From the UHGV virus genome UHGV-0129264: a DNA stretch of 10,808 bases. The stretch is one strand, 5' to 3'. Below are positions 3,873 to 6,684 of this stretch, piece after piece; the stretch's first letter is position 1; each line of letters opens with the position of its first letter. A program made the translations under genes and the position numbers. Below the pieces are notes generated by a model, which was given only the letters and a program-made list of their open reading frames with translations, was not told the origin of the DNA and did no database searches. This DNA is from a virus.

Positions 3873-4103
3873 TTGTCAGAGATTAACACGCTATACAAGA
3901 ACAGACGTAACCGGGCGGTGATGCGGCTTCAGAAAGCACGTAATGAAATTAAATTGGTGGAGGCAAAACTGAAAAAACAGATCCAGCGTTACGATCAGCA
4001 AGATGCTTTTTATGCCGCCATCAAGGCGGCTGCTAATGAAATAGGCATCTGGAAGTTGCTGGTGGAGAAAGCAAAGACGAAGTTAAATGCCAACGAAAGC
4101 TGA
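3873..4103 (+). CDS. 76-aa K/E-rich helical small protein, TTG start (alternative ATG at 3921)
   Basis: ORF track; weak RBS; hairpin ATGTGC-N6-GCACAT at 4109-4126 just after the stop. Confidence 0.4.
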   Translation: MSEINTLYKNRRNRAVMRLQKARNEIKLVEAKLKKQIQRYDQQDAFYAAIKAAANEIGIWKLLVEKAKTKLNANES

Positions 4104-4159
4104 ACTACATGTGCCCACCAGCACATACAGAAAATGATTGTTTCCACATCAAAGAGATT

Positions 4160-4182
4160 TTAATGTTTCACTGAAACATTAA
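4160..4182 (-). terminator. Perfect 23-bp palindrome TTAATGTTTCA-C-TGAAACATTAA, likely terminator for the minus-strand small gene (or a protein-binding site)
   Basis: Overlaps the stop codon (4179-4181) of the 45-aa ORF; on the minus strand the hairpin is followed by TTAAAATCTCTTT. No U-tract on the plus strand. Confidence 0.45.
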
Positions 4183-4316
4183 GTAAGCCAGTGCATAATT
4201 CCATTTTTTACTGACCTTAAAAGCAAAATCAAAACGATGATGAGGATAATAGCCAGAATCTGGCTAATAATAGGCGCATCTAAAAATGCACTCAGGAACT
4301 GAAAAAAAGCGTTCAT
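4179..4316 (-). CDS. 45-aa hydrophobic single-helix peptide (MNAFFQFLSAFLDAPIISQILAIILIIVLILLLRSVKNGIMHWLT), small membrane protein
   Basis: Manual minus-strand translation; ATG at 4316-4314 preceded by AAGGAA (complement of 4324-4329) at 7-8 nt; stop embedded in palindromic terminator; not in the ORF track (<60 aa). Confidence 0.55.
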   Translation of the reverse strand: MNAFFQFLSAFLDAPIISQILAIILIIVLILLLRSVKNGIMHWLT

Positions 4317-5178
4317 TCAGGTGGTTCCTTGTCAAATGTAAAGGTGCACTTGCTCACGTTGACGTAGAAACCCAACCCCTATATAGTTGGATTCGGTGAA
4401 TGAAAGTCGTTAACGTGAGCTTACGGCACATGTTTTCGGAAAAACATCAGGGAACGGCTAATTCCTTGATGCGGGTGGGGTCTGTAATGCAGACCCTATC
4501 TATTAACGTCATGATTGCATCTCAAATTTTCTCCTTATCTTCAATTAATCTACATTCATTTCATCTGTTAGCCACCACAATATGTAGAAAATGGCCCTCT
4601 TGCAAGTGCATAACTTTGTGGATAACTCAGGAAGGAAAAAGTGGCTTTCGCGCACCTTCGGTCAGACAAGGTGTCCGGGAAAGTCAACGCAAAGAAAAAA
4701 ATTGTTAAAAATAACGTTTGTTGGAATTGTATATTTTTATCCCCTTCAATGGTTAGCATTCTATTAACATCTTTTTTTAGAGACAGAAAAACATATCGTA
4801 ACAACATATATACAGTATTAAGAGGCGAGTATTATCCTGCGGTGGGAATTCTGGGCGCTGTTAGATTCGACTTTCTCAGCGGGATTACATCGTCAACTTG
4901 CGACGTTGCCGTATGACTTTCGTGTAATAGGTGACAATGATGCGGCTAGTGAGTTACTTGTGAAGTTTTTCGGAAAAGGTTTTGTGGCCTCGGATCTTGA
5001 TGAGCTACAGCAACATGAAGTGTCTAATTTGATTTTTAGCCATAGCCAATAAGCCTCCCTCCTCCATCAAGGCCACAATTTGTGACCTTAAACAATTTGT
5101 TTTCTGCTTTTTCTTATTTGAGGAAATAACGTTGTTGACAGCTAATAGGCTCGTTGTTGTTATACATACCTGTATAGA

Positions 5179-5535
5179 TTATGACCGTAAATTATTAGCG
5201 GATTTTAAGCCATATTCACCGTTGTAGAAATTACTCATGTTCCATTCATTAGGAAGTTCTTTTCTGTCCAATGTATAGTGGCGCACGATATAACGATCTT
5301 CATCTTCTTCGATGGACAGGCGGACATAGCCAATGTGAATCACCGATACGGGCGGTGTTCGTATTGCATAGATGTCGCGGAGATATACCGGCAGCTCGAC
5401 AAATGCATCAGGTGCATCTGTGATGCTCGTTTTTTCACAGTATTCATATAACGCATCGTTGATATCGTTAAGAGATTCATGATCGTATATTTCCAGGTAA
5501 TTACCGCGATCGCGATGGTACTCGATTTTAGCCAT
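5179..5535 (-). CDS. Hypothetical 118-aa acidic protein, second gene of a minus-strand pair
   Basis: ATG at 5535-5533 abuts the stop of the upstream gene (minus strand reads TGAATG); AGGGGA 6 nt upstream, inside the upstream gene's 3' end. Confidence 0.7.
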   Translation of the reverse strand: MAKIEYHRDRGNYLEIYDHESLNDINDALYEYCEKTSITDAPDAFVELPVYLRDIYAIRTPPVSVIHIGYVRLSIEEDEDRYIVRHYTLDRKELPNEWNMSNFYNGEYGLKSANNLRS

Positions 5536-5943
5536 TCAAAATCCCCTGTTATCGTTTTGCATTTCTCTAATCCGGTTCAGAACTACTTCGTGCTGGACTT
5601 GGATAGCGGCTTTTTCGTTTTCAAGCCGGGCAATAGACATCTCTAATTCTTTGCTGTACCAGGCGAGCTGGGCCAGGTTCATCCGGTTGTGGTCGAGAGT
5701 TGGAGACACTTCGACGCGATCCCTTTCTTTCTGCTTTAATGAGAAGAGATTCATCTCATCCCTTGAGGAAAATTCAGCAACAATTTCTTGTTGATGATCC
5801 GGTCGCTGCGGCATCCTCGCCAGTATAAATGGCGGTTCTTTTGAAAACATGAATGTCGGTTCAGACCGTGTTTTTACCCAGCTTGCCTGCTGTCTTTCGG
5901 CAAGTTCACAGGCTTCATCATAGTTATCTGCCAAACAAAGCAC
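5536..5943 (-). CDS. Hypothetical 135-aa protein with C-terminal coiled-coil-like segment, first gene of the minus-strand pair; start uncertain
   Basis: GTG start at 5943 without a clear SD; internal ATGs at codons 32 and 44 also lack a well-spaced SD. Confidence 0.6.
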   Translation of the reverse strand: MLCLADNYDEACELAERQQASWVKTRSEPTFMFSKEPPFILARMPQRPDHQQEIVAEFSSRDEMNLFSLKQKERDRVEVSPTLDHNRMNLAQLAWYSKELEMSIARLENEKAAIQVQHEVVLNRIREMQNDNRGF

Positions 5944-6256
5944 GGATGGACGGTCTCACGCCCCACCATTCAGACAATAAACTACAATTTTCCCGTCAGG
6001 TTGTGTAATCCCATATGGATGGTCCCACTAGGCGTCCAGCTGAGCTTTAGAGCGTTTCTCGTTAGGAGTGCAGTCAAAATTTTTGGGCAATACAGGATCG
6101 AGAGGAATGCGATTAGGCATAGCTAATTCCTTATTAACTGATTGGCAACGAGGTTACGCTGATCCCGCGGTGATGAATAGTAGCAAAGCGCACAAAAATC
6201 ATCAGCGGTGGTTGATGTACATAACGCGTTTGCACCAAAGGTGCTTCTTTAATGTA

Positions 6257-6276
6257 TACTGTATAGATAAACAGTA
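6257..6276 (+). promoter_or_regulatory. LexA (SOS) box TACTGTATAGATAAACAGTA overlapping a -10 (TATACT 6255-6260) upstream of the UmuD'-like gene
   Basis: Perfect CTGT-N8-ACAG with AT-rich spacer; the only such site I found in the window; candidate -35 TTGCAC at 6230-6235. Confidence 0.85.
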
Positions 6277-6294
6277 TTTTTGAGGTAAAACGCT

Positions 6295-6684
6295 ATGGGT
6301 TTCCCTTCTCCTGCGGCGGATTATGTTGAAAGCCGAATTTCTCTTGATCAGCAGATAATTAGACATCCATCAGCAACCTACTTCATGCGGGCAGCTGATA
6401 GCCATCACCGTGAGGGAATATTGCAGGGTGCTTTGCTGGTGGTTGATTCTTCGCTTACTCCAGTTGATGGTTCGCTGCTTGTGTGCGCTATGGAGGGTGA
6501 ATATCGCATAAAGAGATACCGAAAGTATCCGCGCCAGCACCTGGAGGATTTAAGCACCGGGAAGAAAGAGGCGTTACCAGTGGATGACGATGGATGCACG
6601 GGGAGTAATGCTGTGTTTGGTGTGATCACTCATGTCATTAATGATGCCCGAAGTGGGGAATTTGATGATTGTCCGGTGATTTAA
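6295..6684 (+). CDS. humD: HumD, UmuD'-like S24 peptidase-fold protein lacking the N-terminal autocleavage segment (begins at the GFPSPAADYVE motif)
   Basis: Strong similarity to E. coli UmuD from the post-cleavage residue onward; Ser and Lys aligned with UmuD catalytic positions; GAGG RBS; LexA box upstream. Confidence 0.9.
   Translation: MGFPSPAADYVESRISLDQQIIRHPSATYFMRAADSHHREGILQGALLVVDSSLTPVDGSLLVCAMEGEYRIKRYRKYPRQHLEDLSTGKKEALPVDDDGCTGSNAVFGVITHVINDARSGEFDDCPVI

Follow-up and report, generated by a model that had tools for sequence, protein, structure and literature searches.

Composition of the Stretch

The window, a stretch of 10,808 nucleotides, is 99.5-99.6% identical in BLAST comparisons to P7, SJ46, and P1-like plasmids, and its match to P1 itself stops at about 4655-4724. 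Judged by this identity, the source element is a P7/SJ46-type phage-plasmid of the P1 family, as the P1-like origin proposed in an earlier note on this DNA had anticipated. The intergenic stretch at 4400-5178 was described there as AT-rich, and this holds to a moderate degree: its GC content is 39.5%, as compared with 47.5% and 48.4% in the flanks, and the sub-segment with the lowest GC content (4716-4835) reaches 28%. The interval from pmgT to humD is one of eight hypervariable low-GC regions (PMC9603915).

Pairwise BLAST against E. coli, Cyrano, pECOH89, PhiR41_1, and pMHMC-002 set the boundaries of five segments. Segment A (4317-4586) is a non-coding block of the P1 family with a predicted promoter, PupfN, and a folded plus-strand region. 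Segment B (4587-4715) is DNA from upstream of nrdA in the E. coli chromosome, with two DnaA boxes and a predicted minus-strand promoter. Segment C (4716-4835) is a relic of the region upstream of humD, of the type found in SSU5-like phage-plasmids; segment D (4841-5052) is what remains, the last 66 codons, of a Toprim ("primase") gene for a 174-aa protein; and segment E (5053-5133) contains the hairpin of that gene and a single orphan copy of a palindrome that recurs across SSU5-like genomes. The earlier note had grouped the elements of this stretch as one structured locus; they fall instead into these five unrelated segments, and the one-locus reading is wrong because the elements it lists come from at least four unrelated sources. 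We consider it quite probable that the intergenic DNA at 4400-5178, located in the hypervariable pmgT-humD region, is a mosaic and not a single functional element.

The P1-Family Block and a Small Membrane-Peptide ORF

In segment A, the P1 annotation and a consensus scan place PupfN on the plus strand, with a -35 hexamer TTGACG at 4359-4364 and a -10 hexamer TATAGT at 4382-4387; this predicted promoter matches the consensus at 10 of 12 positions and is kept in all lineages compared. It is flanked on both sides by a 13-bp inverted repeat (GCTCACGTTGACG at 4352-4364 and CGTTAACGTGAGC at 4408-4420) with arms that are 92% complementary. A role of this repeat as a dispersed operator is ruled out by its single occurrence in the SJ46 genome. 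Between the P7-type and pCT29 lineages, block 4353-4440 shows 96.6% identity; the values for segment A across lineages are 96.6% and 88%, as against 75% in the adjoining ORF. It is plausible that 4353-4440 is a regulatory or binding region; the high conservation of segment A could also stem from recent recombination instead of selection. Pattern scans of IMG/VR for the diversity of segment A gave 54 loci with 2-3 haplotypes among them, distant BLAST against plasmids returned matches only in identity bands of >=99%, 95-99% (about 97%), and 80-90% (about 89.6%), and a GTDB scan brought up a 22-mer shared by chance with a Chloroflexia MAG and an Acinetobacter contig of 221 bp that is identical to the window.

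The plus-strand region at 4394-4512 is a candidate leader or small RNA by its folding energy relative to shuffled sequences (minimum free energy -43.6 kcal/mol, z = -5.07, with 0 of 200 shuffles as stable; z = -2.1 on the minus strand). It includes the hairpins HP2 (4445-4471) and HP3 (4473-4501), the latter containing the hairpin GGGTCTG-TAATG-CAGACCC at 4478-4496 that had been recognized previously. In a comparison of 2-3 haplotypes, the consensus fold keeps 39 pairs with 4 broken cells and a covariation term of about 0, and the changes include one compensatory U-A to C-G replacement and two of G-U to A-U. We estimate that a 7-bp hairpin, or an 8-bp palindrome with one mismatch, occurs by chance about 0.3 times per 779 nt; the hairpin at 4478-4496 is by itself near chance level and owes its support to the comparison with relatives, with its one compensatory pair. 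It was not called as an intrinsic terminator by the scan, and the tail that follows HP3 is UAUCUAUUAA. Rfam 15 gave no match at gathering thresholds over the whole window, the best sub-threshold match being BsrG (15 bits, where 55 are required); likewise, Rfam searches at gathering and E-value thresholds and tRNA/tmRNA scans of the window found no known RNA gene, and a literature search for P1 transcriptome or small-RNA work turned up nothing relevant. Support for the suggested non-coding RNA locus is weak and confined to 4394-4512, where the z-score and the one compensatory pair stand beside the missing Rfam match and a poor terminator tail.

Outside the stretch 4400-5178, on the minus strand at 4179-4316, lies a conserved small ORF for a hydrophobic peptide of 45 aa (MNAFFQFLSAFLDAPIISQILAIILIIVLILLLRSVKNGIMHWLT), the best 19-residue stretch of which has a Kyte-Doolittle mean of 3.1. 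P1 and pCT29 share its length of 45 codons, with 75% DNA identity and conservative substitutions, and both have a Shine-Dalgarno sequence (AAGGA / GAGGA). The ORF is annotated in SJ46 only (J46_0085); word-indexed and exhaustive HMMER searches found relatives of the peptide in P1-like elements only, and it matched no Pfam or NCBIfam family. Leftward transcription from the nrdA-like promoter of segment B is probably directed at this ORF. Segment A and the ORF are the one place with a resemblance, and it is a resemblance only, to type I loci (hok/sok, ldr/rdl, tisB/istR): similar to these, they combine a gene for a small hydrophobic peptide with a long structured leader and with a predicted convergent promoter that could yield an RNA antisense to the leader. 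Unlike type I loci, they show no sequence or profile similarity to known families, the 45-aa peptide is longer than most enterobacterial type I toxins, and both toxicity and RNA are putative.

Chromosomal DNA From Upstream of nrdA

Segment B is 94.6% identical to E. coli K-12 over about 130 bp and overlaps the annotated ypaB ORF. Its homologue is found at the nrdA locus in 5426/5426 complete E. coli genomes; in E. coli, nrdA lies to its left, on the minus strand. The consensus DnaA box TGTGGATAA reported at 4617-4625 (TTATCCACA as read in the leftward promoter) is indeed there; with about 0.006 occurrences expected by chance, it is above chance level, and it sits in DNA homologous to the nrdA promoter. 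A second DnaA box, AGTGCATAA at 4605-4613 (TTATGCACT as read leftward), had been missed. The predicted nrdA-like promoter (4577-4625, minus strand) consists of a -35 hexamer TTGCAA (4600-4605), a 17-nt spacer, and a -10 hexamer TATTGT (4577-4582), preceded by two TTATNCACA-like DnaA boxes, TTATCCACA-aag-TTATGCACT, that are next to the -35, share the last base of the pair with it, and are identical to those of E. coli nrdA. At 8 of 12 consensus positions, TTGCAA-N17-TATTGT falls under the promoter-scan threshold of 9. The window, P1, pCT29, Cyrano, pECOH89, and E. coli nrdA all share one layout of box, box, -35, N17, and -10, and a 25-bp block, TGCAAGTGCATAACTnTGTGGATAA, is invariant except at the position n in two unrelated phage-plasmid families and E. 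coli.

An "nrdA-like promoter" and a DnaA box are already annotated here, on the complementary strand, in the P1 record M95666 (476-531 and 507-514; 86399-86454 in NC_005856). This is the same locus, with both DnaA boxes and the same orientation, and the P1 feature corresponds exactly to window 4586-4641. The P7-type element differs in the extent of its E. coli identity, 129 bp as compared with the 56 bp noted for P1, and in what follows segment B, an SSU5-type humD relic in place of the LPhot-hot arrangement of P1, where the promoter lies upstream of hot.

In the E. coli nrdAB promoter, the DnaA boxes overlap the -35, NrdR box 0 is located at the -10 (for the sequence of the -10 region and box 0, see PMC12176259), and the true NrdR site is formed by boxes 1 and 2 downstream. 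Segment B shares with it box 1, box 2, the -35 TTGCAA, the 17-nt spacing, and about 110 bp of upstream DNA. However, the homology does not reach the transcription start but breaks off about 14 bp upstream of it; in place of TATCTT, the -10 reads TATTGT; the nrdA leader is absent; and so are the functional NrdR boxes 1 and 2 (two of 16 bp, 15-16 bp apart), since the E. coli homology ends before them. Only a box-0-like sequence, CTACATATTGTGGTGG, is present, overlapping the -10. Therefore, any regulation would act via DnaA and upstream factors rather than NrdR. Segment B would be a working DnaA-responsive promoter that reads leftward, and for 4587-4715, as nrdA promoter DNA with two DnaA boxes, the earlier proposal of a regulatory or binding region was well founded.

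Remnants of humD and of a Toprim Gene

Window 4601-4835 is 82% identical to the DNA immediately upstream of humD in Cyrano and pECOH89. As in the LexA-controlled promoters of humD, a umuD'-like gene, in P1-like and SSU5-like phage-plasmids, segment C has Cyrano-type upstream DNA, the right half of a LexA box (about 4806-4818, with ACAG at about 4812-4815), the Shine-Dalgarno sequence AAGAGG (4820-4825), and the position of the former humD start (4834-4836), all on the plus strand. In contrast to them, an 11-nt gap relative to Cyrano and pECOH89 removes TACTGTATGTG, including the left CTGT half-site, leaving only the ACAG half of the operator CTGT-N8-ACAG. The homology ends at the AT of the humD ATG, which here reads ATC, and the humD coding sequence is replaced by the Toprim fragment, bar at most seven bases (CCTGCGG, 4836-4842). 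The functional humD gene is located 1.4 kb rightward, at 6256-6684, with an intact LexA box at about 6258-6277. Two relatives have a 17-nt deletion at 4749-4765 in segment C, and other length classes are also found among relatives.

Segment D (plus strand) encodes the last 66 codons and the stop of a 174-aa gene of a "DNA primase" PHROG. It matches the profiles of PHROG 17952 (E 6.5e-39) and PHROG 849 (E 1.4e-6) and is 88% identical in amino-acid sequence to residues 109-174 of the PhiR41_1 protein (BLASTP, E 4e-40). At the DNA level, segments D and E together (4841-5105/5133) are 89-90% identical to PhiR41_1 and pMHMC-002, where the homologous DNA is the end of the 174-aa Toprim gene just upstream of humD, and where the gene product is annotated as a "toprim domain-containing protein" (XSB42472 in PhiR41_1, WP_024199972 in pMHMC-002). 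The last 66 codons, stop, CT tract, hairpin, and downstream motif are collinear with these SSU5-like loci. Unlike in the latter, the first 108 codons are absent, as is a canonical start codon (there is no ATG, GTG, or TTG between the upstream stop at 4819-4821 and 4906); there are two 1-nt indels at the 5' edge and a mismatch in the hairpin stem; and in P7 an IS903 element lies within the segment, with a 9-bp duplication of 4916-4924. With motifs assigned by eye from the 174-aa homologue, segment D keeps GDNDAA and lacks the ITESIF glutamate region, so the glutamate and DxD motifs of a Toprim/primase core do not occur together in one polypeptide. A PDB sequence search with the 174-aa protein gave no match. 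The fragment is in frame with the former humD start and follows an undamaged Shine-Dalgarno sequence. From ATT or ATC, which seldom serve as start codons, a 73-aa product may be weakly translated; a 68-aa ORF of such kind, annotated by others, appears in PHROG 17952.

In segment E, the CT-rich tract at 5056-5067 is, as described before, present, and it is part of the 3' flank of the Toprim gene. The imperfect palindrome GGCCACAA-T-TTGTGACC at 5071-5087 was likewise correctly located and is contained in a plus-strand hairpin, AAGGCCAC-AATTT-GTGACCTT, at 5069-5089, with one C-A mismatch; the second ACAATTTGT exists as well, at 5092-5100 rather than 5093-5101. Four aligned SSU5-like copies have a conserved stem (GGCCAC/GTGGCC), variable loops, and then a conserved 45-nt motif, and it is this conserved stem with variable loops that supports the palindrome, which by itself is near chance level. 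The hairpin was not called by the terminator scan and is followed by UUAAACAAUUUGUUUUCU, with no clean U-tract. Adjacent to it, at 5090-5102, is the SSU5-type, operator-like palindrome AAACAATTTGTTT, which is not expected by chance in the window. Cyrano has 9 perfect sites in 100 kb, located 12-36 nt upstream of start codons, and SJ46 has a single one, that of segment E. The motif is ruled out as a P1 late (Lpa) promoter box, as the -22 boxes of LPhot and LPpac are AAGTTACTT and ATGTGACTT. A plus-strand TGaGGAAAT at 5119-5127 resembles an extended -10.

The SSU5-like homology stops at 5133, just before the plus-strand TTGACA at 5135-5140. This hexamer is in the sequence, as had been noted together with the suggestion that it could drive an antisense RNA. 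It is probably no promoter: there is no -10 hexamer at 16-18 nt, and the consensus scan lists no promoter there. The reported repeat of a 12-mer is only partly borne out, since GTTTTCGGAAAA occurs once only, at 4432, while the 11-mer TTTTCGGAAAA is found at 4433-4443 and 4967-4977. For exact repeats of this kind, we estimate an expectation of about 0.07-0.2 in 779 nt; relatives do not conserve the two copies together, and the second is inside the coding sequence of the Toprim remnant. At chance level and without co-conservation, the repeat is ruled out as functional.

Alternative Readings

The stretch has no convincing ORF, as had been stated from the outset: upf91.4, upf91.6, and upf91.7 of the P7 record (AF503408) are without family support and are most likely not genes. 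It is extremely unlikely that the stretch encodes small proteins, namely these three in P7 and upfN and upfO in P1, with upf91.6/upfO as a YpaB homologue. ORFs of 102, 58, and 91 codons are present and annotated in AF503408, and the ORF at 4591-4767 starts at the E. coli ypaB start and is nearly identical over its first 33 residues, but the ORFs cross junctions between segments of differing origin and have no significant Pfam or PHROG support; Pfam and NCBIfam scans of annotated and candidate ORFs found no credible families, and RefSeq plasmid records, the gene table of which is incomplete, have no gene under this block. The upfN/upf91.4 frame has a 1-nt indel and an 18-nt insertion in pCT29, and the ypaB/upfO frame has an early stop in pCT29 and lacks an ATG and contains stop codons in Cyrano and pECOH89, where the DnaA-box DNA is invariant although the frame is broken. 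The near-invariance of the 25-bp block across both phage-plasmid families and E. coli could instead point to a role in which the boxes act as DNA and not within a promoter, by titrating DnaA or as a site for replication of the plasmid prophage or for its control, and P1 plasmid replication is DnaA-dependent. We regard such a role as very unlikely. There are two boxes only, distant from repA/oriR on the SJ46 map; the surrounding DNA is homologous to a known DnaA-regulated promoter; and a promoter fits because the -35 and -10, at 17-nt spacing, have been retained alongside the boxes in six lineages despite a diverged spacer.

We also consider a non-coding RNA locus improbable. In this reading, PupfN (4359-4387) would produce a plus-strand RNA of about 110 nt (about 4394-4505) with its 3' end at HP3, and this RNA would act in cis, as an antisense regulator, on the leftward message for the 45-aa peptide, which would begin at the nrdA-like promoter (about 4570); the layout would be akin to that of a type I toxin-antitoxin module or of a convergent-promoter switch. 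The conservation and quality of PupfN, the stronger fold on the plus strand, and substitutions that lie for the most part in loops, plus one compensatory pair and two changes of G-U to A-U, all favor it, as do the better conservation of segment A than of the adjoining ORF, the constant length and Shine-Dalgarno sequence of that small hydrophobic ORF, and the fact that scan and reading by eye found no other minus-strand promoter candidate between it and the nrdA-like promoter. However, HP3 is followed by a poor terminator tail that escaped the scan, over 2-3 haplotypes the covariation term comes to about 0, and no Rfam, Pfam, or NCBIfam match links the locus to known type I systems. Knock-downs of upfN and upfO were neutral, and the long-range pairing of the minus-strand minimum free energy structure, read by eye, is not kept in pCT29. 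Lehnherr et al. are said to have found in 1993 no residual addiction in P1 without phd-doc, which would also count against a further module of this type. An extended form, in which 4353-4540, the 45-aa ORF, and the captured nrdA promoter make up one regulatory module conserved in P1-like phage-plasmids, seems to us a long shot. It is similarly unlikely that, in such a module, the DnaA-box promoter borrowed from the host ties expression of the membrane peptide to the replication-initiation state of the host, or that a structured antisense or leader RNA made from PupfN gates its expression. If true, host regulatory DNA would here have been built into a type I toxin-antitoxin-like or convergent-transcription switch.

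Probable Origin of the Mosaic

In the mosaic reading, segment A is a conserved non-coding block specific to the P1 family, with the predicted PupfN on the plus strand followed by a folded leader, and may be regulatory, supplying the small ORF with convergent promoters and with a leader or antisense RNA. Segment B is a piece of about 130 bp captured from the chromosome of the host: it holds the regulatory half of the nrdA promoter of E. coli, complete with its -35 and the two DnaA boxes, to which a phage -10 has been joined, and it points leftward, toward block A and the membrane-peptide ORF. These functional statements on segments A and B, promoters and RNAs included, are predictions from sequence. 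In segment C, a second humD allele, of SSU5-like type, has left behind its 5' control region as an orphan, with the LexA box half deleted and the ATG lost; this region abuts the last 66 codons of the Toprim/primase-like gene in segment D, followed in segment E by that gene's own 3' hairpin and one orphan SSU5-type operator-like palindrome. The "decayed genes" among the earlier suggestions are indeed found at 4716-5133, as the humD 5' relic and the Toprim 3' fragment with its hairpin.

What the alignments show is the extent and limits of each homology, the lesions (a missing start codon, half a LexA box, the stem mismatch), and the dispensability of segments C, D, and E, which are absent from P1 and, in the case of D, carry IS903 in P7. 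P1 and pCT29 have hot in place of these three segments, and in Cyrano and pECOH89 the homologue of B and C is directly upstream of humD. Segments C, D, and E are probably inert debris of illegitimate or homology-assisted recombination between P1-like and SSU5-like phage-plasmids, in which the shared segment B and the humD region could have served as anchors and which would have replaced hot, the gene held by P1 at this position.

For the most part, the stretch is unremarkable debris of evolution in a region known to vary. It matters mainly for annotation, as its "structured elements" are leftovers of genes and control regions that can be identified. It also records that the P1-like and SSU5-like phage-plasmids, two unrelated families, have exchanged DNA in a known recombination hot spot. 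Both families have kept the geometry of a host DnaA-box promoter intact, and P1-like elements keep a small membrane-peptide ORF and, next to it, a folded non-coding block that is the better conserved of the two; should the borrowed promoter be active, a prophage function would be linked to the replication cycle of the host. The lead of note is segment A with the conserved 45-aa ORF (4179-4316, minus strand). Two further features, a possible junction microhomology (CCTGCGG, 4836-4842) and a possible second relic of a LexA half-site at about 5164-5177, are no more than suggestive (27/2000 shuffles).

Composition of the AT-Rich Region

The AT-rich, ORF-poor region at 4400-5178 is built mostly of known kinds of sequence: gene remnants, mosaic junctions and a known captured promoter. 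About two thirds of it is wreckage, comprising a dead control region of humD (a umuD'-like, LexA-controlled gene), the tail of a Toprim gene, the hairpin of that gene, and an operator-like palindrome of foreign origin; a further sixth is a DnaA-box promoter derived from the host and already annotated in P1. The low GC content described in the earlier note was confirmed (39.5%; flanks, 47.5% and 48.4%), and the minimum is 28%, at 4716-4835. Most of the features listed there are likewise real, but they do not form one unit. No Rfam family, tRNA or tmRNA was found in the window.

Because window 4000-5600 is matched over its full length by the Salmonella phage SJ46, Enterobacteria phage P7 and several 'P1' isolates (99.5-99.6% identity; megablast against phage records), while reference P1 (NC_005856) matches the left 41% only, we assign the window to the P7/SJ46-type members of the P1 family. 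The match to P7 is split by an IS903, inserted at a 9-bp duplication of window 4916-4924 (pairwise BLAST). To the left of the region, a pmgV homologue ends at 4103 and is followed by a 45-codon ORF on the minus strand (4179-4316). To the right lie the convergent pair upf93.6 (5179-5535, minus) and an lxr homologue (5536-6120, minus), then humD (6295-6684), with a LexA box before it and phd-doc after it. Relative to P7, the lxr/upf94.2 homologue carries two nonsense codons, both G-to-A changes: codon 31 (TGG to TAG), common to the IMG/VR loci L021, L053 and L057, and codon 55 (TGG to TGA), found in this window only. On account of these two codons, the gene is a pseudogene here.

Segment B and the nrdA Promoter

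Window 4560-4700 has a single match on the chromosome of every complete E. coli genome (5426 of 5426), at approximately 94-96% identity and under the small ORF ypaB (distant BLAST). In K-12, the site of segment B (4587-4715) lies 124-253 bp upstream of the start codon of nrdA, which runs leftward on the opposite strand. Segment B is host DNA. It holds both nrdA DnaA boxes, including the one that the earlier note placed correctly at 4617-4625, as well as the -35 element; its minus strand reads TTATCCACA-aag-TTATGCACT/TTGCAA, then 17 nt, then TATTGT. The layout is the same in E. coli nrdA, except that the -10 there is TATCTT (-10 region and NrdR box 0 sequence from PMC12176259); the functional NrdR boxes 1 and 2 of E. 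coli and the nrdA leader are absent from the window.

The block TGCAAGTGCATAACTnTGTGGATAA and the -35/N17/-10 geometry are retained in P1, the P7-type elements, the P1-like pCT29, the SSU5-like phage-plasmids Cyrano and pECOH89, and E. coli, the spacer having diverged in places. The overlapping frame (ypaB, upfO in P1, upf91.6 in P7) is interrupted in Cyrano and pECOH89 and ends prematurely in pCT29. What is conserved is a DNA signal, not a protein, and we infer that segment B is a working, DnaA-responsive, NrdR-independent promoter firing leftwards. This part of the region is already known: on the complementary strand, GenBank M95666 and the P1 RefSeq record annotate an 'nrdA-like promoter' along with DnaA box(es), to which the conservation of the block and geometry and the loss of the frame are additions.

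Cyrano has its own nrdA and nrdB genes (L068, 17948-21512), and its E. coli nrdA promoter fragment lies 19 kb from them, upstream of humD. Approximately 90 nt downstream of its nrdA-like DnaA-box promoter (L005, 3500-4010, minus) is a strong bidirectional terminator, and beyond it a 27-aa amphipathic ORF (MVNLLFKIVPPMFAIIKAIIEYVNQRP) that has a separate Shine-Dalgarno sequence and terminator; a 16-mer, TAAGTATCTGGCGACT, is repeated twice in this stretch. The region is a candidate for a small RNA and a type-I-toxin-like peptide.

Remnants in Segments C, D and E

Window 4601-4835 shares 82% identity with the sequence immediately 5' of the humD-like S24 peptidase gene of Cyrano and pECOH89. The aligned Cyrano sequence, CAACATATACTGTATGTGTATACAGTATTAAGAGGCGAGTATTATGGGC, comprises a LexA box, a Shine-Dalgarno sequence and an ATG; its counterpart in the window reads CAACATA, a gap of 11 missing nt, and TATACAGTATTAAGAGGCGAGTATTATCCTGCGG. 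The SOS box has lost its left half (CTGT), the Shine-Dalgarno AAGAGG (4820-4825) is retained, and the former start position (4834-4836) is now ATC. Homology to the Toprim gene starts five bases past this position and is in frame with it, with rare initiators only (ATT at 4831, ATC at 4834). The functional humD of the element, at 6256-6684, has an intact LexA box and an upstream region of the type found in the SSU5-like PhiR41_1. Segment C (4716-4835) is an orphaned humD control region.

Downstream, a plus-strand frame is open at 4822-5052 but has no ATG, GTG or TTG upstream of 4906. Its translation matches PHROG 17952 (E 6.5e-39) and PHROG 849 (E 1.4e-6), both labelled 'DNA primase'. At the DNA level, segments D and E are 89-90% identical to PhiR41_1 and pMHMC-002, in which the homologous sequence is the 3' end of a 174-aa gene named 'toprim domain-containing protein' by NCBI. 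The window translation is 88% identical to residues 109-174 of this protein (E 4e-40), which when complete matches PHROG 849 with an E value of 9.5e-54. By eye, the GDNDAA (DxD) motif is retained, and the N-terminal 108 residues, with the ITESIF glutamate region among them, are missing. Window 4841-5133 is a gene fragment.

Collinearity with the SSU5-like homologues extends through the stop codon, the CT-rich tract (5056-5067), the imperfect palindrome (5071-5087) and the T-rich sequence downstream; both the tract and the palindrome lie where the earlier note had put them. The SSU5-like copies of the palindrome form an uninterrupted hairpin, GGCCAC-loop-GTGGCC, and carry four different loops, as a structural stem should; the stem of the window copy has a C-A mismatch owing to a G-to-A change. 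The second ACAATTTGT exists, starting at 5092 rather than 5093, and is the centre of a perfect 13-bp palindrome, AAACAATTTGTTT (5090-5102). This palindrome, AAACAAnTTGTTT, has nine perfect sites in the first 100 kb of Cyrano (OV696614, L067/L068); with flanking TCT and up to two mismatches there are 18 matches, versus about 0.05 expected by our estimate. The sites typically fall directly past a -10-like hexamer, 12-36 nt ahead of a start codon, and in Cyrano include those before parA, a helicase and nrdB. In 100 kb of SJ46 it occurs at this single place. Our reading is that of an SSU5-type operator-like site brought along as a passenger; in Cyrano it looks like the operator of an uncharacterised SSU5-like phage-plasmid regulon. 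The P1 late-promoter box was considered and set aside, as the palindrome differs from the -22 boxes of P1 late promoters.

Two further proposals fared less well. The 12-mer thought to be repeated occurs once; the real repeat is an 11-mer, TTTTCGGAAAA (4433-4443 and 4967-4977), which we attribute to chance, since its frequency is near chance level for 779 nt, one copy is altered in the pCT29 homologue and one in that of PhiR41_1, and the second copy sits within the coding sequence of the gene remnant. The TTGACA at 5135-5140 is present, but as a promoter it lacks a -10 partner and falls just past the end of the homology.

Proposed Recombination History

Eight hypervariable regions of low GC content are listed for P1-like phage-plasmids, and the one from pmgT to humD is among them (PMC9603915). 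Among 54 IMG/VR P1-like loci (L011-L064), the distance from segment A to humD falls into at least six length classes, confirming a recombination hot spot; they include hot directly followed by humD without lxr, hot-lxr-humD (P1), the P7 type of the window, and the P7 type with a 17-nt or approximately 620-nt deletion. In pCT29 and P1, LPhot-hot occupies the place of segments C, D and E. The simplest history would be recombination of a P1-like element with SSU5-like phage-plasmids, with the common segment B as the left anchor and the humD region as the right one, and a later illegitimate join between the beginning of one humD allele and the middle part of the Toprim gene. A GCGG-type microhomology may lie at this join, which is only suggestive. 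The best view of segments C, D and E is that they are dispensable debris, given IS903 inside segment D of P7 and a 17-nt deletion in segment C of two relatives.

Adjoining the upf93.6 stop codon, ATACCTGTATAGAT (5164-5177) is similar to the left half of the LexA-box region of humD (ATA-CTGTATAGAT, 6256-6269), a local alignment reached by 27 of 2000 shuffles. This is only suggestive of a possible second LexA half-site relic, and the likeness may be a footprint of insertion of the upf93.6-lxr module.

Segment A and the 45-aa ORF

The sole lead of some promise combines segment A (4317-4586), the 45-aa ORF and the borrowed promoter. When the P7/P1 lineage is compared with that of pCT29, the ORF shows 75% identity, 4353-4440 shows 96.6% and 4441-4540 shows 88%. 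The best-conserved part of the segment contains a 13-bp inverted repeat (4352-4364/4408-4420) bracketing PupfN, a plus-strand promoter predicted in the P1 annotation (TTGACG-17-TATAGT, 4359-4387; sigma-70 match 10/12). The plus-strand RNA at 4394-4512 folds at -43.6 kcal/mol (z = -5.07); for the wider region, the minus strand has z = -2.1. A consensus fold of five distinct haplotypes retains 39 pairs, with two G-U to A-U changes, four broken cells, substitutions mostly in loops, and one compensatory U-A to C-G change, in the hairpin noted earlier and indeed present at 4478-4496; IMG/VR and PLSDB hold two or three haplotypes only, which limits this covariation evidence. The sequence after the hairpin is a poor terminator, and the upfN/upf91.4 frame is disrupted by indels in pCT29. 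Segment A is probably a conserved non-coding regulatory or leader block, and our best guess is that convergent promoters control the 45-aa ORF, a small membrane-peptide gene.

The hydrophobic 45-aa ORF has a clear transmembrane stretch and relatives in P1-like elements only; it is annotated in SJ46 (hypothetical protein) and left unannotated in the P1 and P7 records. By comparative criteria we consider it real, because P1 and the 75%-identical pCT29 lineage keep its length and Shine-Dalgarno sequence and differ by conservative substitutions.

Between the convergent pmgV homologue and this ORF is a perfect 23-bp palindrome, TTAATGTTTCA-C-TGAAACATTAA (4160-4182), which overlaps the stop codon of the ORF and is only partly conserved in pCT29. 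At 4518-4537 (minus), a strong Shine-Dalgarno sequence and ATG (TAAGGAGAAAATTTGAGATG; anti-SD-like UCUCCUUAUC on the plus strand) are near-invariant across lineages; the ATG opens a 3-codon ORF (M-Q-S-stop) in P1/P7 and a start-stop (ATG TAA) in pCT29. In the leader of the predicted leftward transcript, this might serve as a ribosome standby or start-stop element. A 221-bp contig of Acinetobacter idrijaensis (JQCU01000035; L066) is 100% identical to window 4432-4652 and most probably reflects contamination by P1-like DNA of E. coli.
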